The notes beneath the pieces are model-generated. The model searched no databases. It was given only the letters and a program-made list of their open reading frames with translations, and had not been told where the DNA came from. Positions 2,898 through 20,028 of a stretch of 64,000 bases of DNA are shown here, piece by piece. Position 1 is the stretch's first letter, and each line of letters opens with the position of its first letter. Position numbers and translations under genes: made by a program. This stretch comes from a virus (taxonomy: Duplodnaviria > Heunggongvirae > Uroviricota > Caudoviricetes), in IMG/VR virus record IMGVR_UViG_3300032046_000009; one strand, given 5' to 3'.

Positions 2898-3490
2898 TAT
2901 TCATTCACCTCTTTATTAGTTGTATAGTAGTCTAGTGAGTTAGGGCTGACGGTTGCACTTTTGATTATCTTTATTATTCGTTTCGCTCTTATATAATCTA
3001 TGTGTCCGTGTTTGCCCTTATATACTACAGGAACCGTTAGACTTCGAATCCCGACCCGTTTTAAGAGCCTTCTACGCAATGCGTCACGTCTTACGACTAA
3101 AAGGTAATTCTTGTGCCAATTTGGGCTTATTTCTATGTCAATTTGGGTCTTAGGGTCAAAGAAGTCTAATTTGAAAATGTGCCAGCGGTTGCACCTATCC
3201 TTAACTTTTATGCGTACCTCATGGTTCAACTCTAGGTTAAAGTCGTCCACTAATCTCTTGAATTGTGCCTCTAAATGGGTAAATACGTTAGGATTACGCT
3301 TAGAATTCAATTTCCAGCAATTTCCAAAGCCCTTTCCTTTAGCCTTGCCTTTTTCACAGTCCTTATAGTGTTTAAAGAATTCTAAGAACTGCACTTGTGA
3401 TTCTAGGCTTAAATCGAAGAGTCCGATAACGTCCGTGTCCTCTAGTTGTGTTAAGTGTTCGCATATTACGCTAAGTTGTAAGTGTTCCAC
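2897..3490 (-). CDS. hypothetical protein, weak PD-(D/E)xK / DUF559-like C-terminus
   Basis: 197 aa; GTG 5 nt after leader; D..IEI..H..R..L..G pattern only suggestive. Confidence 0.6.
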   Translation of the reverse strand: MEHLQLSVICEHLTQLEDTDVIGLFDLSLESQVQFLEFFKHYKDCEKGKAKGKGFGNCWKLNSKRNPNVFTHLEAQFKRLVDDFNLELNHEVRIKVKDRCNRWHIFKLDFFDPKTQIDIEISPNWHKNYLLVVRRDALRRRLLKRVGIRSLTVPVVYKGKHGHIDYIRAKRIIKIIKSATVSPNSLDYYTTNKEVNE

Positions 3491-3894: not shown

Positions 3895-4416
3895 TTATAA
3901 ACCTTCGCTTTTTTTGGTAAACTTAGCGAATTTTGAGATAACGCTCTGCTGTAGCTCTAGCTGTGCATCTATTGTACATGTCCCGATAAACTCACAATAG
4001 ACCCACTCGTTTATCGTTTCTTGTATCAATTCCAACACTAGAGGGTCTGGATTATTATCAAGCAATTCATTTATTGCTGTTTTCCAAGCATAAACCTCTT
4101 GTTTCAGCAAAAATTCTCTATCGTATGACAGGCAAAATTCGGCAATATCCATATTAGGGTAAAGCGTTTGATATACGATAATATGTCCTATTTCGTGATT
4201 CAGAATTAACGCTTTTACCTTATCAGGTATTGAACCATAACCATTAATATAATTAGTTGAATAGTTCTTAGTTCCAATAATGATTTTTCGCTCAGGGTAA
4301 AATGAAGCCTTCGAATGATTCCAGCTTAGGATATAACTGTACTCGATACGGAAACCTAGTTTTTGCGCTAAGTTTTCAAGTCGTGTCAATTCATCCTTAT
4401 CGTTCAAATGTTCCAC
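3895..4416 (-). CDS. HExxH metallopeptidase-like protein
   Basis: LNHEIGH motif; tandem TATA boxes 4441-4453 and 4479-4486. Confidence 0.6.
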   Translation of the reverse strand: MEHLNDKDELTRLENLAQKLGFRIEYSYILSWNHSKASFYPERKIIIGTKNYSTNYINGYGSIPDKVKALILNHEIGHIIVYQTLYPNMDIAEFCLSYDREFLLKQEVYAWKTAINELLDNNPDPLVLELIQETINEWVYCEFIGTCTIDAQLELQQSVISKFAKFTKKSEGL

Positions 4417-4504
4417 GTCCTTAAAGATGATATAACACCGTCCTTAATAAAGAGTTCTATGGTTTTTCTTGTAATAGGTATATAAACCTTTCGCTCTGTT
4501 CGAA

Positions 4505-4800
4505 CCTGTCCGTGCCAGCGATACCCAAAAGGACTGTATATCAAACCCGTTTGTCAAAAACAAGCCCTGAGCATGTCGTTCGGACGAATACGCTCAATTC
4601 CCTTTATATTTGCTCAACGATATTGAGCGAGCAAGCCCCGTTTAGTCGAATAAGGCTAAATCGTGGAGTTCGGGTCTATGTTAGGCATGGTCAATTCAAC
4701 ATCAGTCCTATGGTAACTATGGTTCGATGACGTTCGTTTAGCTAAATCAGCCTTAGAGCTAGTCATCGCGGCGAGTTCGAATCTATAAGATGCCTCTATT
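4505..4800. ncRNA. candidate noncoding RNA locus, paralog of 19105-19400
   Basis: ORF-poor; shared blocks cccaaaggactgt, cctgagc, aacgatattga, catcagtcctatgg. Confidence 0.4.
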
Positions 4801-5871
4801 AACTGATTCCGCCTCAAATCGGGGTCCGATGATGTGTAGCTAAAGTGTATCTGTGTTCTACAACTAAAAGCAAACGTTTATATAGGACGCTGAGAACGTA
4901 GTATTTGGCGGCGGCGGTTCGCGTTAAGCGTATATTACATAGTTACGCATCTTATGAATTCAGTTGCACTAAAAGTTCAACTTTGGGTTGCCTCTCTCCC
5001 GTGTCTTGCGTCAAGCTACTAGCAGATACGCACAGCCCTATATAAACCTTCCTATTAAAGTGTAGAACAGAGATACAATAGGAACCTTTATATACCTCGC
5101 TATCCTCTTCTCAGCGCGCCTCAAATCGTGCTTCGTTTGGCTAATCCGCCTCGATTCAGCCCTAATTGAACATGGTTGTTCTAGGCAAACATTTATAAGC
5201 AACCATGCCTTTTATATGGTATGTATCGAAAGACGTGATTAAACCCAGAGTTGTACTTTATGGTTCGAATTTTGCTAAGTTTGCACATATATAAGCAACC
5301 GATAGGTTTAAATAGCTACTATATAAGGCTATCGGCGATACGCTTAAATAGGGGGTATATAAACGTTTTGGTCTAGCACAACTTCTAGTGTAACAAAAAG
5401 TGCAACTTTTGGGGTAACGCCTCGGCTAACAGGAAATTGTCCGTAGAATGCAACTGAGAATGTCACATAAGCGCACATAGGCGTTTTTTTGATTCCAATT
5501 ATTTTCTGGTCAGAGCTTCCACGCCGTCCGTTTTACCTGTCGGTTTGCCCTGCTTAATCACCTGATTAAAAGTTCTCCACAGTTCCGCGAGCCTTTCGGA
5601 TAATAAAGTCACCGTTTGCCAAAACGTCTTTTTTTCAGGGCTATTTTGGCATTCAGGGGAGCTAGAGGGGGGGGACTTGTTTATAATGGGGTATTAATCA
5701 GTTGTTTAAAATAGAGCTATAGCACTATGTCAGTCAGCACGTTGTCGTATGCCAACTATTCACTCCATAGACCCTTTACGTATGACAACCCTTTTCTTTA
5801 CGTATGTAAAGGTCATCAGTATCTTTTATCGAGCATTTCTTTTATCCATGTACTCCACTTTTTAGCTATTC

Positions 5872-6040
5872 TGGGGGTCTAGTACCACTTTTAGGGGTCT
5901 TTTGAGGGGTATAGGGAGTCATCTAGGGGGTTAGTGATTAGAGGTCGTTAGGGGTTCGTGGTTAAGGGGGTCGGACGGGGGTTCTCTGGGGTTCGGGAAT
6001 TTACTTAACAATTTCTGTTAATGGTTAGGGGGGTCGGGGT
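5872..6040 (+). repeat. G-tract iteron array (about 10 runs of G4-G6)
   Basis: taggggtc, gaggggta, tagggggtt, ttaggggttc, taagggggtcgg, acgggggttc, ctggggttcgg, ttaggggggtcgggg. Confidence 0.75.
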
Positions 6041-6389
6041 AAAGGGTGCATGTGGCATGAGAGAGCCTGTTACGAGCTACGATTCGTTAATCAGTTGATT
6101 AAAAGTTCGGGTTTGCCTGTGTCGCCTTGCTACGGGCTTGGCAGAACTTGGGTCAGTCTGGGTTGACTAGGTGAAATCAAAAAGTGTTAAGGATTCTTAA
6201 CAAAAATTGTCTAAGTTTGCAGAGGGTAAAAGAGGGGGTTTCGAGAGAGGTTAGAAGGAATGAGTAGAACGGGCGAAGGGAAAGCGCGAGAAAGGACGGT
6301 GAAAAAATGGAACAATATCCCTTCGCCCTTGATAGAGTAGTATGTCAAACGGGTATATAAAGGTTGTGGTAGAAAGACCATGCTCGAAT

Positions 6390-7165: not shown

Positions 7166-7513
7166 TTAAGCGTCCTTCAAGTAAAGCGTATATCCGACTG
7201 AGAACCATCCCGTTTGGCAGAAGCCAATAATAACGGTTTCTCCGCGCGTTTCGCACTCTTTTATCTTGTCTTTCAGCAATTCGGTCATTGCTTTCGGGTC
7301 TGTTCCAGATTCACCCATAGTTGCTATCCATCCAGAATGAAGGTGTTCATTTTGAAGCCCTGTGCCTGAACGGGTCGTAATTTTGTCGTCATTTCCTAGT
7401 TCAATAGCGTGGTAGCCCCGTTTCTTTGCCAGCGCGTCTAATCTGTCATAGTCTTGGAAAACATTGCAATGGACGGGTGGGAATTTGTCTTTTGATGTTA
7501 GGAAGTTCTTCAT
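7166..7513 (-). CDS. hypothetical protein
   Basis: 115 aa ORF, co-oriented, 11-nt gap to upstream gene. Confidence 0.65.
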   Translation of the reverse strand: MKNFLTSKDKFPPVHCNVFQDYDRLDALAKKRGYHAIELGNDDKITTRSGTGLQNEHLHSGWIATMGESGTDPKAMTELLKDKIKECETRGETVIIGFCQTGWFSVGYTLYLKDA

Positions 7514-7524
7514 TGCTCAGTCAC

Positions 7525-7914
7525 CTATTGATGTCCGTCTTGAATATTCTGGAAAACTTCAATGAATCCGTGCATGTGAACGGCACACGCGAATAACTCA
7601 TAGATTCCATAGTATGACGCAAAGTTGTCATAACCAACACCCGAATCTACGAAGATTCTGGGTCGCTTTTGGACATTGCCCTTCTCTGTGAGTCCCGCTA
7701 GAACAACGACACGTTTTTCTGGGTTCTTTAGAAGATATTTTTCTAATTGTTCTCTTGCCTCTTTGCCGAAGTTGTCCTCAATGTTCGCTAGGTTCAAGTA
7801 TGTCAGCTTAGAGTATCGTTCAGATGGTTGTGCTGGATATTGGTTTTCGAGCCATGACTCTGAGGGTTTAACGTTCTTCGATGTCAGCTTTTCCTTTAAC
7901 TCTTGTAACTTCAT
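7525..7914 (-). CDS. hypothetical protein
   Basis: 129 aa; AAGGTTGAAACT-ATG leader; TATA 7949-7956. Confidence 0.65.
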   Translation of the reverse strand: MKLQELKEKLTSKNVKPSESWLENQYPAQPSERYSKLTYLNLANIEDNFGKEAREQLEKYLLKNPEKRVVVLAGLTEKGNVQKRPRIFVDSGVGYDNFASYYGIYELFACAVHMHGFIEVFQNIQDGHQ

Positions 7915-7985
7915 AGTTTCAACCTTTGAAGAGTAGTGTTCGCCGTCCTATATAAAGGTTCGCTAAGAACGAACGTGCTCAAAAT
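7915..7985 (-). promoter_or_regulatory. class I promoter cassette with distal TTGAGCACG..TTCTTAGCG element
   Basis: plus strand cgccgtcctatataaaggttcgctaagaacgaacgtgctcaaaa. Confidence 0.6.
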
Positions 7986-8149
7986 TTTAGGGGGGTCTTG
8001 GCTAGTGCGTTTCGCCGTGACCCTAGTTTTATTTAATGTAGAGGTTGAAATTTGCCCTATGTCGTATCGCACCGCATAAGGATTTTTCAACGTGCGGAAT
8101 AGACATATACACACCGAAGTATATAAACTTTCGCTAAGAACAACCATAC

Positions 8150-8533
8150 TCAGAGAGGAATAACACCTAGCCATTTATAAACTTCGGTGTTAATTTCAGC
8201 CATACCCGAACCCGTCCATACGTTGTGAGGAATAGAAGTATGAAGAGACTCTGGAATGAAAATAACGTGTGATTTATCGATGTGGTGTCCTTCTGAACCG
8301 TTAAAAGGTGCGTTTAGAATAATAGAGCCTAATTCTCGGCGTTTAGCTTGAATCCTAGCTTGCGTTTTCTTGTGATAAATTCGATGTTCTCTCTCATATT
8401 TTCTCTCATAGTTTGGGTTTTCTAATCTCCATTTCCTCTTATATAACTTTACCTCTTTCTTATGTTTCAAACGCCAATTCTTGTAATATGTAATACGTTT
8501 TTCTCTTGAATCTGTGAGCGTCATTTGATTCAC
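8150..8533 (-). CDS. His-rich nuclease-like protein, paralog of 9378..9704
   Basis: shared KRRELG and GHHID..VIxIPxxLHxSIxHxVWTGxGMAEIN. Confidence 0.65.
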   Translation of the reverse strand: MNQMTLTDSREKRITYYKNWRLKHKKEVKLYKRKWRLENPNYERKYEREHRIYHKKTQARIQAKRRELGSIILNAPFNGSEGHHIDKSHVIFIPESLHTSIPHNVWTGSGMAEINTEVYKWLGVIPL

Positions 8534-8579
8534 ATTAAACTAAATGTTAAACGTGCTTATAAAGGTTTCGGTAAAAGTT

Positions 8580-8830
8580 AGTTGGAACACGGGGGAGAGT
8601 GTGCCCCCGTGTTCTCGGACGTGGTTTGTGGTTTTTTGTCAGTTGAAGCACAAGTTGGTGGAATGCCCCGTGTACGGGACAAACCTTCGGTCTTGTGCGG
8701 TTCCGTTCTTTGTCGCTTATTTCGAACGTAACCCTAGCGACTATGAAGGGTCGGCAAGTTTGTGAGCGTATAGCTCTTTGGTCTTGCGCGCCCTTTGTTT
8801 AGACGCAAGCGCGTCATGTATTATTGAGAT
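8580..8830 (-). ncRNA. candidate GC-rich structured RNA
   Basis: TATA 8841-8848 fires leftward; no minus ORF; perfect 11-bp hairpin gaacacggggg/cccccgtgttc 8585-8614. Confidence 0.45.
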
Positions 8831-8870
8831 GTCAAACGACTATATAAACTTTTCGGGAGAAAGACCATGT

Positions 8871-9254
8871 TTATTGTCTGGGTTTGTTTGCCCTTTCTCT
8901 AAAATCGTCTGTTTCTTGTTGTGTGAAAACTTTATCAATAGCTGGAAGTCTATCGCTCTTTACATAACCATGTAAAAGGTTTCTCTCTTCTACATATTCA
9001 TTATCGCTTTCAGCGTTCAAGTTGTGAGAAATAGCTGATAAACTTTCGTATGGAAGAATTCGGTTTAATACTTCATAAATTGCAACTTCATTGAATTCGT
9101 GAACGAACAACTCAGCACCAATATCATCAGCGATTATACTGTCAATGGAATAGATAACTTTGGTAATTTTAGTATCATATCTTGAAATAGTCCCAGAAGC
9201 CAAAGCTGTTCCATCGAGTTCAGCGTTATCGAAGTAAATTTTCTCCGTGTTCAT
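8871..9254 (-). CDS. hypothetical protein
   Basis: track 8871..9266; ATG 6 nt after GGTGA beside palindrome 9267-9282. Confidence 0.6.
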   Translation of the reverse strand: MNTEKIYFDNAELDGTALASGTISRYDTKITKVIYSIDSIIADDIGAELFVHEFNEVAIYEVLNRILPYESLSAISHNLNAESDNEYVEERNLLHGYVKSDRLPAIDKVFTQQETDDFRERANKPRQ

Positions 9255-9266
9255 CGCGTTCACCAA

Positions 9267-9282
9267 TTAATCAACTGATTAA
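9267..9282. promoter_or_regulatory. 16-bp palindrome TTAATCAACTGATTAA (between TATA and start)
   Basis: read directly; second copy at 9332-9347 flanks the same promoter. Confidence 0.7.
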
Positions 9283-9331
9283 TCAGTACAGCGCGCTATA
9301 TAAAGTTTCGCCTAGAACGTCCATGTTCGAG

Positions 9332-9347
9332 TTAATCAACTGATTAA
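9332..9347. promoter_or_regulatory. 16-bp palindrome TTAATCAACTGATTAA (promoter-distal copy)
   Basis: read directly. Confidence 0.7.
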
Positions 9348-9377
9348 AAATTCGCTAAAAACCACTTGTCGCCACGT

Positions 9378-9704
9378 TTATGTGGTAAGCCATTCGAAAA
9401 CTTTATCATTTATTTCTGCCATACCCTGACCTGTCCAAACGCAATGATGAATAGAAATATGAAGTTCTCTGGGAATATAGATAACACATTCAAAATCTAT
9501 ATGATGAGCAACAGAGCCAATAAATCTCCCATTAAAAGGGTCAAACCCTAATTCTCGCCGTTTTGCATTCTTCATTTTAGTTCGCTCTGGGTGTTTTTTT
9601 CCCCACATTTTTATTTGTTCTCGTTGTCTCTTTTTTTGTGATTCAGTTTTCTCTTTTATTTCAACGTCAAAATTTCCAATAGACTTTAATCGCATCTGAA
9701 TCAT
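9378..9704 (-). CDS. His-rich nuclease-like protein, paralog of 8150..8533
   Basis: VAHHIDFECVIYIPRELHISIHHCVWTGQGMAEIN; class II TATA 9730-9737. Confidence 0.65.
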   Translation of the reverse strand: MIQMRLKSIGNFDVEIKEKTESQKKRQREQIKMWGKKHPERTKMKNAKRRELGFDPFNGRFIGSVAHHIDFECVIYIPRELHISIHHCVWTGQGMAEINDKVFEWLTT

Positions 9705-9745
9705 CTAAAGATAAAATAGTAGAAGTTGCTTATAAAGGTTATGGT

Positions 9746-9961
9746 TTATGTAAATTGAACCTGTTCTATGTCTTTCTTTTTGATGATTTTTTCGAAACAG
9801 TCAGGGCAGAGCCACGTTAAAGTTATGCCAATTTTTCCTCTTTCTTGTACTTTTCCTTTCAAACGATAAACTTTTAGGCTGTTTTTCCAACAATTAGTGC
9901 AACTATAATAGCTTATTGATGAAATACAAATATTATAATCGGTTTTTGTTAGTTGAATCAT
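9746..9961 (-). CDS. small Zn-ribbon protein, last cassette of array A
   Basis: ATG in JM; ends EQVQFT then TAA (start of JM lost). Confidence 0.65.
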   Translation of the reverse strand: MIQLTKTDYNICISSISYYSCTNCWKNSLKVYRLKGKVQERGKIGITLTWLCPDCFEKIIKKKDIEQVQFT

Positions 9962-10200
9962 GTAAACTCTACCTTCTCTTTGCTGTTGAGAAAATCCTTA
10001 AACCACTTTTCCTTTTCCCATTCTTCAATGGGCGTATGAAAACCTAAAAGCGTCCCATGTTCTTTGTCAAACCTTTTTGAAAAATATCTCTTCCATTCTT
10101 CGTTACAACTTTCGCAGAGAACAGCCAATAATAGTTTAATTGGAAATTGACCGCTAACTATTCTTTTGCATTTTCTACAACGTCCTTTAAATTTTGTCAT
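9958..10200 (-). CDS. small Zn-ribbon protein (family B)
   Basis: JM both ends; CRKC..CESC-x3-W; ends EKVEFT. Confidence 0.7.
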   Translation of the reverse strand: MTKFKGRCRKCKRIVSGQFPIKLLLAVLCESCNEEWKRYFSKRFDKEHGTLLGFHTPIEEWEKEKWFKDFLNSKEKVEFT

Positions 10201-10424
10201 GTAAATTCAACCGTTTCCCGTTCACTCTTCCAATACTCACATGAACAACCTAAACGATAAGAATGTCTAGGACTACCTAACGGAGTTTTCACGTCCCTTA
10301 AAAATCCTGTAGCTTTCCCGTTCGGTTCAGTTAAGTTAGGTTGTGAGCGCATCTCTGTGCATTTATAATAAATCTTGTCGAGATTCCTCTTGTTCGAACA
10401 GTTAAAGCAACCTTTCTCTTTCAA
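10197..10424 (-). CDS. small Cys protein (family C, GCFNC..GCSC)
   Basis: track 10197..10493 trimmed to TTG in JM 10421-10441; ends ETVEFT. Confidence 0.6.
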   Translation of the reverse strand: MKEKGCFNCSNKRNLDKIYYKCTEMRSQPNLTEPNGKATGFLRDVKTPLGSPRHSYRLGCSCEYWKSERETVEFT

Positions 10425-10660
10425 GTGAAATTGACCTTCTCTTTTGTTGTTACTTTGCGTTTTAATAGCCACTTTTTGAAAAAAGACTCCCAAGTATTAT
10501 CTCTTCTATCGTGAAAGAAGTCATGTCGTTCTTGTGATTTTTCCCACAAAATACCATGTGAGTCGCAAAGATAAAGTTTTTCCTCAGTCTGTATATCGTG
10601 ATAATTTGCATAACCTTTTTTACCGCAAATACAACACTTTTTACGGTTTGAATTTATCAT
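10421..10660 (-). CDS. small Zn-ribbon protein (family B)
   Basis: JM both ends; CCICG..CDSHGILW; ends EKVNFT. Confidence 0.7.
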   Translation of the reverse strand: MINSNRKKCCICGKKGYANYHDIQTEEKLYLCDSHGILWEKSQERHDFFHDRRDNTWESFFKKWLLKRKVTTKEKVNFT

Positions 10661-10836
10661 GTGAACTCGACCTGTTCTTTTTCGTTAGCCTTTTTATAAC
10701 AAACATTTAGGGTATTGCCTTTGAATCCTCTTTCTATTGAACATGGTTTGCAATAACACACGTTCGCGCTCAATTTATGCAAACTATCACATATATTATT
10801 GCAAGTGAATCTCTTTCCACAAACTTTACAAATCAT
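10657..10836 (-). CDS. 59-aa 8-Cys protein (family A; not in track)
   Basis: hand translation MICKVCGKRFTCNNIC..CYCKPC..EQVEFT; ATGA overlaps. Confidence 0.6.
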   Translation of the reverse strand: MICKVCGKRFTCNNICDSLHKLSANVCYCKPCSIERGFKGNTLNVCYKKANEKEQVEFT

Positions 10837-11051
10837 GTGAACGTCACCGTTTCCCGTCCCTTTAGACGGTTAATAATCTCTCGCGCCTTCATTTTGTCTA
10901 AGAGTTCCATTATCTCTGGGTTATCGGAAAGTAACTTGTCTATGCGTTCGCCTTGCTCTCTGAGCCTGTCTAGCTCGTACATCATACAATTAAAGCATAA
11001 TTTCTCGTTAATTCGTTGTTTGAACTCGTTTCCACATTTAGAACAAATCAT
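10833..11051 (-). CDS. small Zn-ribbon protein (family B)
   Basis: track 10833..11087 trimmed to ATG in JM; ends ETVTFT. Confidence 0.65.
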   Translation of the reverse strand: MICSKCGNEFKQRINEKLCFNCMMYELDRLREQGERIDKLLSDNPEIMELLDKMKAREIINRLKGRETVTFT

Positions 11052-11194
11052 GTGAAACAGACCTTTTCTCTTCCTTTGTTGTTGCATTGCTTACACATTC
11101 TTGAACCTATCTTCTTTGCATCCGCATAGTTTTTAACGGGAATATTGAGAGGTCTGCCACATTTTGAACACGGTATAACGAGAACGCCCGTCAT
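11048..11194 (-). CDS. 48-aa Zn-ribbon protein (not in track)
   Basis: CSKCG..CKQC; ends EKVCFT; ATGA overlaps. Confidence 0.55.
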   Translation of the reverse strand: MTGVLVIPCSKCGRPLNIPVKNYADAKKIGSRMCKQCNNKGREKVCFT

Positions 11195-11397
11195 GTGAAT
11201 AACACCTTCTCTTTTGGCTCTGGGGTTTTATATAGTTTGGTTCCTCGCGCTTTCATTTGAGAATTAAGTTCTTGACAACATTTATCAATTTCATCATAAT
11301 CAATACTGTTTTCGTGACATTTATCGTGCATCTTGCATTCCGTACACAAATCCTCATAATCGTACTCGATATAACCGTTATCGTCTATTGTTGTCAT
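11191..11397 (-). CDS. acidic Cys-containing small protein
   Basis: track trimmed to ATG in JM 11394; ends EKVLFT. Confidence 0.65.
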   Translation of the reverse strand: MTTIDDNGYIEYDYEDLCTECKMHDKCHENSIDYDEIDKCCQELNSQMKARGTKLYKTPEPKEKVLFT

Positions 11398-11588
11398 GTG
11401 AAACATACCTTCTCCTTTTGTTGTAATTCGATTAAATCTGTATCAGATACAACATACCTTTCGGTTTTATATCTTATATCAATGGTTCTGTTTGACATAA
11501 TTCTTGTAATTTTAACAAATGAACCTTTGGGGCAATGCCTAAAGCCAGCGTATTTTAGCTTTGCCTTATCGCCAACTTGAAACGTCAC
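11394..11588 (-). CDS. small beta-barrel (SH3/KOW-like) protein
   Basis: GTG after GGGTGAT; VGDKA motif; ends EKVCFT. Confidence 0.6.
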   Translation of the reverse strand: MTFQVGDKAKLKYAGFRHCPKGSFVKITRIMSNRTIDIRYKTERYVVSDTDLIELQQKEKVCFT

Positions 11589-12188: not shown

Positions 12189-12368
12189 GCTTTCAACCCC
12201 TCTCTAAACTTGCCATGTGCGAACGGTTGACCGTGATGTGAGCCTGTCGGCAGACTTGAATAGAAACGTCTAAGTTTTCGGACGTTCAACGGCAGACCCC
12301 CGTGACTTTGCGTTTTGCGAGTTTGCGCTTTATCCTATGAAGTTTTCCCGTATTAATCACCTGATTAA

Positions 12369-12420
12369 CTAGAACAACACCGTGACTTATAAAGGTTGTT
12401 CCAGAAAGACCATTCTCGAA
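12369..12420 (-). promoter_or_regulatory. class I promoter for array A, palindrome 12353-12368 adjacent
   Basis: cgtgacttataaaggttgttccagaaagaccattctcgaa; about 160-nt ORF-free leader follows. Confidence 0.55.
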
Positions 12421-19753: not shown

Positions 19754-20028
19754 GTCACACTTTCGGTGTAACTTTCCGTCCCCTCGAAAATTAAATTTTT
19801 AGTAGAATCCTGAGTGTCACATAACGCACATAGGCGTTTTTTCTTCCCAATTAGATTTCGGTTTATGGTGAAGCCCTCTGCCAGCCCCCAACGTATTCCC
19901 CAGACTTTTAATCAACTGATTAAAAAAGCACCGACTTCAGGCTTCAGTTCCCATTGGCTTCGCCCTAGCATCCAGAACGTCTTTTTCCCTAGTCTATTTA
20001 CCTGTCAAATGTAGCTAGGGGTAGGGGA

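Follow-up and report, generated by a model that had tools for sequence, protein, structure and literature searches.

A gene for a structured non-coding RNA, very likely transcribed as its own unit, in an uncultured virus-like element with archaeal-type promoters

The locus and its transcription unit

The 64,000-nucleotide (nt) stretch of IMG/VR record IMGVR_UViG_3300032046_000009 (the window) has a GC content of ~38% and carries its genes almost all on the minus strand. Positions 8580-8830, the part studied here, lie between an upstream gene for a 127-amino-acid (aa) protein and a downstream gene for a 124-aa protein. Flagged in an initial annotation, these ~250 bases very likely make up a genuine gene for a non-coding RNA (ncRNA), transcribed separately, in an uncultured virus-like element with archaeal-type promoters, and the call of an ncRNA gene is well supported. 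The fuller reading, that minus strand 8818-8573 is an independent gene for a structured ncRNA of ~245 nt, which would act in trans as a scaffold or decoy, is judged probable.

The promoter of the RNA gene (8841-8869, minus strand) consists of an upstream element CATGGTCTTTCT, a B recognition element (BRE)-like stretch CCCGAAAAG and a TATA box TTTATATA at 8848-8841. The last reads TATATAAA on the plus strand, precisely where the initial annotation had placed a minus-oriented TATA; BRE-like stretch and box together, CCCGAAAAG-TTTATATA, span 8857-8841. A purine-rich BRE directly 5' of the TATA box is the textbook archaeal promoter layout, and a purine-rich, GCGAAA-like stretch stands directly 5' of TTTATATA. 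Within the window there are 19 copies of the TATA motif plus flank (0.81 expected) and 30 of an extended 27-nt promoter pattern, CATGGnCnTTCT-N9-TTTATA (1.2 expected), 27 of the 30 on the minus strand; sigma-70-type sites are not enriched (6 against 3.8 expected). The copy at 8843-8869 shows no mismatch to the 27-nt pattern. At 22 of the 27 minus-strand copies the ATG of an open reading frame (ORF) lies 25-44 nt past TTTATA, so that a start ~24 nt after the box, followed by short Shine-Dalgarno leaders, would fit; the RNA-gene promoter is among the five copies that lack such an ATG and point into ORF-free DNA, the nearest real start being 309 nt away. From the established archaeal TATA-to-start spacing and the ATG positions at the other promoters, transcription of the RNA gene is predicted to begin at 8816-8820 (minus strand), ~22-26 nt past the TATA box. 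An equivalent BRE/TATA lies upstream of all homologues of the RNA, and is followed in them by a common ..GCTGACAT.. stretch.

At the other end of the unit, the hairpin that had been described as closing the region, GAACACGGGGG-N8-CCCCCGTGTTC, is found at 8585-8614 and is followed on the minus strand by CCAACTAACTTTTACC. The oligo-U tract CUUUUACC (8570-8577, minus strand) is the predicted 3' end; archaeal RNA polymerase terminates at oligo-T, and transcription of the RNA gene would terminate at this CUUUUACC tract. A U4 run after the hairpin is seen in the homologues as well, lying 8-12 nt past it in the window and in contigs L012, L013 and L037 (four of the five complete members), and in L009 an extra hairpin intervenes between the terminal hairpin and the U4 run. 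There follows a second, minimal BRE/TATA promoter read from the sequence, CGAAACCTTTATAAG (8556-8570, minus strand), which serves the next gene (8524-8150) and, as a separate promoter, marks the end of the RNA transcription unit; the junction between RNA end and next promoter, TTTTACC/GAAACCTTTATAAGC, is also present in L012. The sequence of the RNA gene thus bears both marks of an archaeal transcription unit, BRE/TATA and a closing T-run.

GC content reaches 0.48-0.54 over 8550-8750, against 0.30-0.40 in the flanks. The minus strand of the region folds at -87.7 kcal/mol (z = -7.1) and the plus strand with z = -3.8, and five members of the family give sense-strand z-scores between -5.3 and -7.5. 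That ~250 bp are free of minus-strand ORFs is borne out, in that the longest sense ORF has 34 aa and no ORF is kept in the homologues; among the members sense-strand ORFs reach 34 aa at most and are unrelated to each other. The plus-strand ORFs 8544-8765 (73 aa) and 8778-8975 (65 aa) do exist, and these, or a small minus-strand peptide, might be the real genes of the locus, but such a reading is scarcely credible: antisense ORFs in the homologues shift in frame and length (77, 57, 29, 36 and 51 aa), neither of the two is preserved there, no plus-oriented promoter is present, and ORF 8778-8975 overlaps the conserved 127-aa gene on the opposite strand. The initial annotation had already noted that both ORFs lack promoter and Shine-Dalgarno context.

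Homologues in metagenomes

On sequence comparison the RNA defines a family that is not in Rfam and is conserved in related metagenomic genomes. The window sequence itself is also present on ENA/Logan contigs L001-L003, of which L002 is 99.5% identical to the window over 1.4 kb, with seven of seven differences falling outside the RNA. Homologues were obtained from the contigs of relatives of the upstream 127-aa gene, for which there are 11 homologue clusters at 48-70% identity, together with one motif scan of Joint Genome Institute (JGI) metagenomes. They were found in six other metagenomic lineages, in each case downstream of the 127-aa gene family: in L009 at 4440-4750 (nhmmer E = 3.5e-6), in L012 at ~2975-3140 as a short form of 165 nt, in L013 at ~4240-4600 as a long form of 360 nt, in L036 at ~1003-1240 and L047 at ~1660-1790, both cut off by the contig end, and in L037 at 2350-2085 on the minus strand, this last being the single true new member from the JGI scan. 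Of further forms, L033 holds the first nucleotides only and L010 and L011 a divergent form. The unit of promoter, helices, terminal hairpin and U-run recurs in lineages whose 127-aa protein is 48-70% identical, and the discrete minus-strand ncRNA that had been postulated from the TATA box at 8841-8848 to the hairpin is supported by these homologous units in six lineages and by the compensatory stem changes described below.

The window sequence was the only input to two covariance models, R1 for the D module and R2 for the 3' element. R1 recovers 11 modules in seven RNAs, window D1 included, and R2 recovers L013, L012, L037 and L009 at E = 2e-6 to 3.5e-4 with no other match in the window.

Of the checks proposed in the initial annotation, covariation with homologues yielded compensatory changes and the Rfam model search yielded no known family. 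At the gathering thresholds of Rfam 15 the whole window gave no match; within 7800-9500 the best E on the region was 2.4, from a small nucleolar RNA model that matched just the hairpin and scored 16.9 bits (threshold 50), and L009, L012, L013 and L037 gave no match at E <= 1. ARAGORN found no tRNA or transfer-messenger RNA gene in the window, the UUCGAA stretches lying outside a T-arm context. Among annotated phage records, megablast of 7500-10000 and tblastn of the neighbouring proteins returned nothing or distant AAA ATPases. In IMG/VR the 127-aa protein pattern and the exact hairpin had no match, and four RNA motif patterns brought up no more than a coding family that is unrelated, a high-GC actinophage gene or chance matches; applied to the IMG/VR pattern matches of one scan, R1 gave a best E of ~0.05, which is not convincing, and R2 no match. 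In GTDB genomes a 575-aa protein was without relatives, the RNA pattern gave eight bacterial chance matches that lack the hairpin, and no provirus or host copy of the RNA was found.

Architecture and covariation of the RNA

Helix coordinates in the window, all on the minus strand, derive from structure models in which the energies of two alternative helices, H4 and H5, were compared. The predicted RNA is modular, with a 5' hairpin, one or two D modules, AUAGUC and a hairpin, a C/A-rich linker with ACGUCCGA, and a GC-rich terminal hairpin.

The 5' hairpin H1, GACGC-GCUU-GCGUC (8802-8815), is the stem-loop gacgc-aagc-gcgtc of the initial annotation, which is present as described but lies ~7 nt away from the 8795-8808 assigned to it. 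Its formation in the RNA is supported by L012, in which GACGC/GCGUC co-varies with GAGGC/GCCUC (GAGGC-UCUU-GCCUC, one pair changed on both sides). H1 is missing from L036 and L037 and is therefore taken as an accessory element. A long-range helix, GACG...CGUC, that closes the whole RNA in the minimum free energy fold was ruled out, as L012 favours the local 5' hairpin and L009 has the equivalent sequence elsewhere.

In each D module the two strands of a lower stem enclose a variable upper hairpin, closed by G-C, with ACCRAA (6 nt) on its 5' side and ACNAA (5 nt) on its 3' side. Module D1 (8748-8793) has the lower stem GGGCG(C)GCAAG/CUUGCCG(A)CCC, the loop ACCAAA opposite ACAAA and the upper hairpin GAGC-UAUAC-GCUC; module D2 (8648-8698) has the lower stem GCACAAG/CUUGUGC, the loop ACCGAA opposite ACCAA and an upper hairpin with the tip CCCG-UACA-CGGG. 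This tip is formed by the palindrome ccccgtgtacggg, which had been pointed out in the region and is found at 8666-8678. The internal loops ACCRAA opposite ACNAA are almost invariant. The outer lower stems are wholly different by member (GGGCG/CGCCC, GGGAACG/CGUUCCC, GGAAGAG/CUCUUCC, GAACGC/GCGUUC, GGACGCA/UGCGUCC), and pairing in the lower stems nevertheless stands at 90%, compared with 69% once columns are shuffled (none of 2000 shuffles as high). Model R1 scores D2 at 85.5 bits; D2 of L037 is approximately identical to that of the window, and D2 of L036 keeps the loops and lower stem with an unrelated upper hairpin.

Between the D modules, at 8699-8744, lie a conserved AUAGUC and then helix H4 (GUCGCU/AGCGAC, 8736-8741 with 8712-8717), together with one ACGUUCGAA site. 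H4 co-varies in the homologues, being GUCAU/AUGAC in L009 and GUCACACGGG/CCCGUGAC in L013, and having a G-U pair in L036. Overlapping it is the 10-bp helix H5, GGUUACGUUC/GAACGGAACC (8724-8733 with 8699-8708), which, at 9-11 bp, is restricted to the close trio of window, L036 and L037. The energies of the two models differ by less than 3 kcal/mol (-79.2 for H4, -81.9 for H5), and H4 and H5 are treated as alternatives; their simultaneous formation as a pseudoknot was rejected as sterically unlikely, L037 having no linker between the strands.

The single-stranded C/A-rich linker UUCAACUGACAAAAAACCACAAACC (8615-8647) carries CUGACAAAAA and, at 8622-8615, (C)ACGUCCGA. The ACGUCCGA motif is kept in the homologues, standing 5' of the terminal hairpin in five of five 3'-complete members and occurring also in the truncated L036 and L047. 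Each RNA has two to four single-stranded ACGUYC sites; their density is 12.2 per kb within the RNAs, compared with 0.53 per kb elsewhere on the strand.

The terminal hairpin (8585-8614), with an 11-bp stem GAACACGGGGG/CCCCCGUGUUC and the loop CACACUCU (8596-8603), is the sole perfect GC-rich spaced inverted repeat of at least 10 bp within the 64 kb. Across five sequences 8 of its 11 pairs differ on both sides; the stem is 96% paired against 68% when shuffled, the covariation score is 0.89 against 0.28 when shuffled (0/500 as high in each case), and slid registers are only 40-55% paired. The loop core ACACUCU is invariant in all members, and the apical loop AACACUCUU is conserved, so that here, as elsewhere in the RNA, unpaired motifs stay fixed while stem sequences vary. 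A kissing interaction of the terminal loop with D1 (CUCUU with AAGAG) is inconsistent among members and was dropped. The shortest member, L012 (~165 nt), consists of H1, D1, linker and terminal hairpin only, a set that can be regarded as the core of the RNA.

Genes at the borders of the RNA

The RNA lies directly upstream, and on the same strand, of the 124-aa gene (8150-8524, minus strand), and its hairpin and U-tract could attenuate; a structured 5' leader or cis-regulator of that gene, riboswitch- or attenuator-like, would be one reading of this arrangement. It is a very improbable one, inasmuch as the gene has its own BRE/TATA (8556-8570) between the hairpin and the start codon, no Rfam riboswitch matches, and the downstream gene is absent in L037 and different in L009, yet the RNA is conserved in both. 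In the window and L012 the RNA is followed by the 124-aa cassette; L009 has a DUF7417 gene in that place and L037 another ncRNA gene, differences that argue against a leader. The cis-regulatory leader and riboswitch class as a whole was rejected on the same grounds, namely the promoter that the downstream gene has of its own and the change of that gene among L009, L012 and L037.

The 124-aa protein is basic, has an invariant HH..H..H and is encoded by an inserted cassette outside the RNA unit. In L037, which lacks the gene, the RNA gene directly abuts the next RNA gene; compared with L037, the window has an insertion, containing the minimal promoter and the 124-aa gene, between CTTTT, the end of the RNA, and GAGTATGG, in which the next RNA gene has its promoter region. 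The left junction of the window recurs in L012, which carries, in addition, a second copy of the 124-aa family upstream of the RNA. Family copies thus lie at 8150-8524 and, as a paralogue, at 9378-9704 in the window, both on the minus strand, and at 2591-2968 and 3185-3604 in L012. The family comprises small basic proteins with the invariant residues R..LG..N..F...HH...P...H....H...M...N, is represented in >350 metagenome clusters and has no Pfam domain. An AlphaFold2 model of the 124-aa protein (predicted local distance difference test, pLDDT, 90) has three helices, then a beta-hairpin and a helix with the invariant His residues; searches of Pfam, of PDB sequences and of folds gave no significant match to HNH or anything else. 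With a minimal promoter of its own, the gene behaves like a mobile cassette.

A genuine PF01844 HNH gene lies upstream of the RNA in L013, and nuclease-type cassettes flank the RNA in the window, L012 and L013. The RNA gene appears, from these arrangements, to be conserved enough to draw mobile nuclease-type cassettes to its borders, and the gathering of nuclease-type genes there fits the idea of a conserved target. The adjacent 127-aa protein, for which the structure model is unusable (pLDDT 54), is a candidate partner of the RNA by synteny only.

Eight independent contigs (L003, L006, L010, L011, L033, L034, L036 and L047) end in the RNA gene or within ~240 nt past the 127-aa gene. Most simply, these breaks would arise from RNA stretches identical between co-occurring strains, such as D2 in the window and L037. 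Flanking cassettes and contig ends (all of those named except L047 ending in or just past the region) are also what might be expected of an element acting at the DNA level, such as a replication origin, a packaging or recombination site, or a recognition site of the adjacent mobile nucleases, the repeats then being protein-binding or cruciform sites; the almost purely Watson-Crick stems and the good folding of both strands would agree with this. In every lineage, however, a full standard promoter points inward and an oligo-T follows, and at least eight different independently co-varying helices with conserved asymmetric internal loops form the pattern of an RNA, not that of palindromes bound by proteins. 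An operator-like palindrome, TTAATCANNTGATTAA, present in 25 copies in the window, is absent from the region, and the contig breaks are explained equally well by RNA stretches identical between co-occurring strains. A DNA-level element is on these grounds improbable.

Other non-coding units and repeats in the window

A second promoter-driven non-coding unit lies at 7965-8122 (minus strand), with a TATA box at 8129-8122, a length of ~130 nt, a GUUGAAA...UUUCAAC helix and the end CCAAGACCCCCCUAAAAUUUU. It is conserved in L037, at 2062-1893 (nhmmer E = 1e-33), immediately next to the homologue of the present RNA. A third ncRNA candidate, at 6225-6382 (minus strand), has a perfect promoter copy (6356-6382), the post-TATA GTTTGACAT of the studied RNA, a 10-bp hairpin GGGCGAAGGG...CCCUUCGCCC, a CU-rich tail with CACCGUCCUUU and the same CUUUUACC end; it has no convincing ORF, the only ones nearby being TTG-start ORFs of 45 and 34 aa at atypical spacing. 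A GC-rich leader of ~200 nt, with the palindrome operator and with GAACGTCCGAAAAC, which holds the ACGUCCGA motif, comes after the promoter at 12388-12414 (whole region 12189-12414, minus strand).

Directly after the TATA box, ATAGGACG is found at 10 promoters, all on the minus strand (for example at 7951, 14320, 23612, 24578, 58717 and 60833), and once on the plus strand; the GGACG after those TATA boxes is the complement of the repeated CGUCC of the RNA. The 16-bp palindrome TTAATCANNTGATTAA is expected 0.09 times in the window, against its 25 copies (for example 9267-9282, 9332-9347, 12353-12368 and 19908-19923), often brackets promoters, occurs also in L004, L007, L013, L014 and L037, and looks like the operator of a viral dimeric regulator. 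At 9746-11588 (minus strand) there are at least eight genes for small CxxC proteins ending in ..E(K/T)VxFT, with ATGA stop/start overlaps, and their repeated junction looks like a coupling or recombination cassette with the ribosome-binding site of the next gene. A large C-rich non-coding region with CCCCTAA-like repeats and several TTAATCANNTGATTAA palindromes, at 5200-6210, is syntenic with 5900-6560 of L004 and 4410-5000 of L007 and may be a replication origin or regulatory hub.

Relation to known RNA systems

By analogy, the RNA would work most like the motif-displaying scaffold or sponge RNAs, and as an object it most resembles phage-borne structured RNAs. CsrB/RsmZ, CrcZ and 6S RNA are likewise products of stand-alone genes of a few hundred nt with their own promoter and a terminal hairpin, and likewise show a repeated short single-stranded motif on or between hairpins, the stems varying and the motifs being fixed. 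Unlike the CsrB type, the RNA described here is virus-encoded, belongs to an archaeal-type host and has no Rfam match, and its motif, (C)ACGUYCGA, is unrelated to GGA or A-rich motifs. In the phi29 packaging RNA (pRNA) two loops have mutually complementary, co-varying 4-nt sequences. That RNA, too, is encoded by a virus under a promoter of its own, measures ~120-250 nt and is built of helices whose loops are conserved, with a large non-coding region within a few kb; in contrast, no consistent loop-loop complementarity is seen by eye across the present members, and the Rfam pRNA model gives no match. The window yielded neither a packaging motor nor a terminal protein of the phi29 type; a 288-aa ATPase encoded in it gave one weak terminase-like match (E = 6e-6).

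Archaeal kink-turn (K-turn) ribonucleoproteins (RNPs), box C/D and H/ACA with L7Ae, share with the D modules an asymmetric, purine-rich, GA-containing internal loop between two co-varying helices, present in repeated form. The loop here is 6 x 5 nt, however, rather than a 3-nt bulge with tandem G-A pairs: the 5' strand ACC-GA-A fits a bulge plus GA, whereas the 3' strand has AA, not GA, by the stem and two extra unpaired nt, and the key G is replaced by A (ACCAAA) in D1 of the window and of L037. A box C/D small RNA (sRNA) was rejected, as RUGAUGA occurs nowhere in the RNA and CUGA only once, in the linker and without a partner. An H/ACA sRNA was rejected as well; the nearest ANA past D1 is 19 nt from the upper stem, none is correctly placed past D2, and there is no K-loop. 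The pocket-like loops of that comparison are identical in all D modules, and the Rfam models of box C/D and H/ACA sRNAs do not match the RNA. The HEARO/IscB omega-RNA, also a structured ncRNA, resembles it in position, in that a small gene with nuclease-like, histidine-rich motifs follows directly on the same strand. It was set aside because the neighbour here has 124 aa (IscB has ~400-500 aa, with RuvC and HNH) and lacks RuvC and a bridge-helix, and no Rfam HEARO match is found; the 124-aa protein is, moreover, missing next to the RNA in L037 and L009.

GOLLD and ROOL are structured ncRNAs of 500-800 nt from bacterial phages and prophages, are in Rfam and are of unknown function (PMC12286853). 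Like the present RNA they are virus-borne, highly structured and conserved, and were found by comparative genomics in metagenomes, but the RNA here is shorter (~165-360 nt), has no similarity to them and belongs to an element with archaeal-type promoters.

Proposed function and host

Exposed sequences that stay fixed while the helices around them compensate are the signature of an RNA that presents binding sites, and for this reason a scaffold or decoy role is favoured. The RNA would act in trans as a protein- or RNA-binding scaffold or decoy, and docking would take place at the internal loops, which do not vary, at the exposed ACGUYC(GA) sites, two to four in number, and at the fixed apical loop AACACUCUU. 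An RNA-binding factor of the host or the virus, or else a complementary RNA, may dock there; the co-varying stems would merely hold the docking sites in place, and the terminal hairpin would also protect the 3' end of the RNA.

The main rival is a base-pairing regulatory sRNA, in which the unpaired ACGUCCGA, the apical loop AACACUCUU and the C/A-rich linker would be seeds for viral or host mRNAs, for example at purine-rich ribosome-binding sites, controlling translation or stability. That the most conserved residues are unpaired and exposed would agree with seeds; the loop CUCUU complements the AAGAG of some Shine-Dalgarno-like sites in the genome, and the neighbouring ncRNA candidate at 6335-6225 has a long CU-rich tail. 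Complementary sites are nevertheless not enriched in the window, TCGGACGT being absent from the gene-sense strand and AGAGTGT occurring on it once, and seed pairing leaves the invariant internal loops of the D modules unexplained. A seed-pairing sRNA is thus considered unlikely, if still the strongest competitor of the scaffold or decoy.

Several points weigh against the scaffold or decoy gene as drawn here. Its trans role is a proposed one, and both the 5' and the 3' end of the RNA are predicted. The family is small, with five complete and two or three truncated, mutually related sequences, and because the sequences are few and related the shuffle statistics overstate their independence. Stem pairs are almost all Watson-Crick, with ~5-6 G-U pairs against three A-C mismatches, and antisense fold z-scores are nearly as good as the sense ones in L037, L012 and L013, so that thermodynamics alone cannot settle the strand; the RNA strand is assigned from promoter, terminator and gene orientation, not from thermodynamics or G-U pairs. 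An archaeal host, finally, is deduced from the form of the promoters and from the nearest named relative of one protein.

That protein is an SPFH/Band-7 protein of the window, whose nearest organism-named homologue, at 45% identity, is in a Candidatus Bathyarchaeia metagenome-assembled genome. The host is probably archaeal and possibly a member of the Bathyarchaeia. Put at its most specific, and only tentatively, the scaffold or decoy reading would make this the first defined family of structured trans-acting ncRNAs of archaeal (probably Bathyarchaeia) viruses. It would be a modular RNP scaffold or decoy whose loops and ACGUYCGA sites capture a host RNA-binding factor or defence nuclease; its gene would be one of three or more viral ncRNA genes clustered here (6335-6225, 8095-7965 and 8818-8573) and would be conserved enough for mobile nuclease cassettes to land at it.

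Significance

Hardly any dedicated genes for structured ncRNAs have, to our knowledge, been described in archaeal viruses, and a paper on Bathyarchaeia viruses mentions none. What would be new here is a virus-encoded structured ncRNA as a new family in an archaeal-type virus. The locus offers a compact, testable example, with a defined promoter and end, a minimal form of ~165 nt in L012 and few invariant unpaired nucleotides, and ACCRAA/ACNAA, the internal loop of the D modules, may represent a recurrent RNA motif that is new. The RNA family would account for the assembly breaks of these viruses here and could be a marker for finding their relatives. Were the RNA to bind a host factor, an interface between virus and host would come to light in a major uncultured lineage of sediment archaea.

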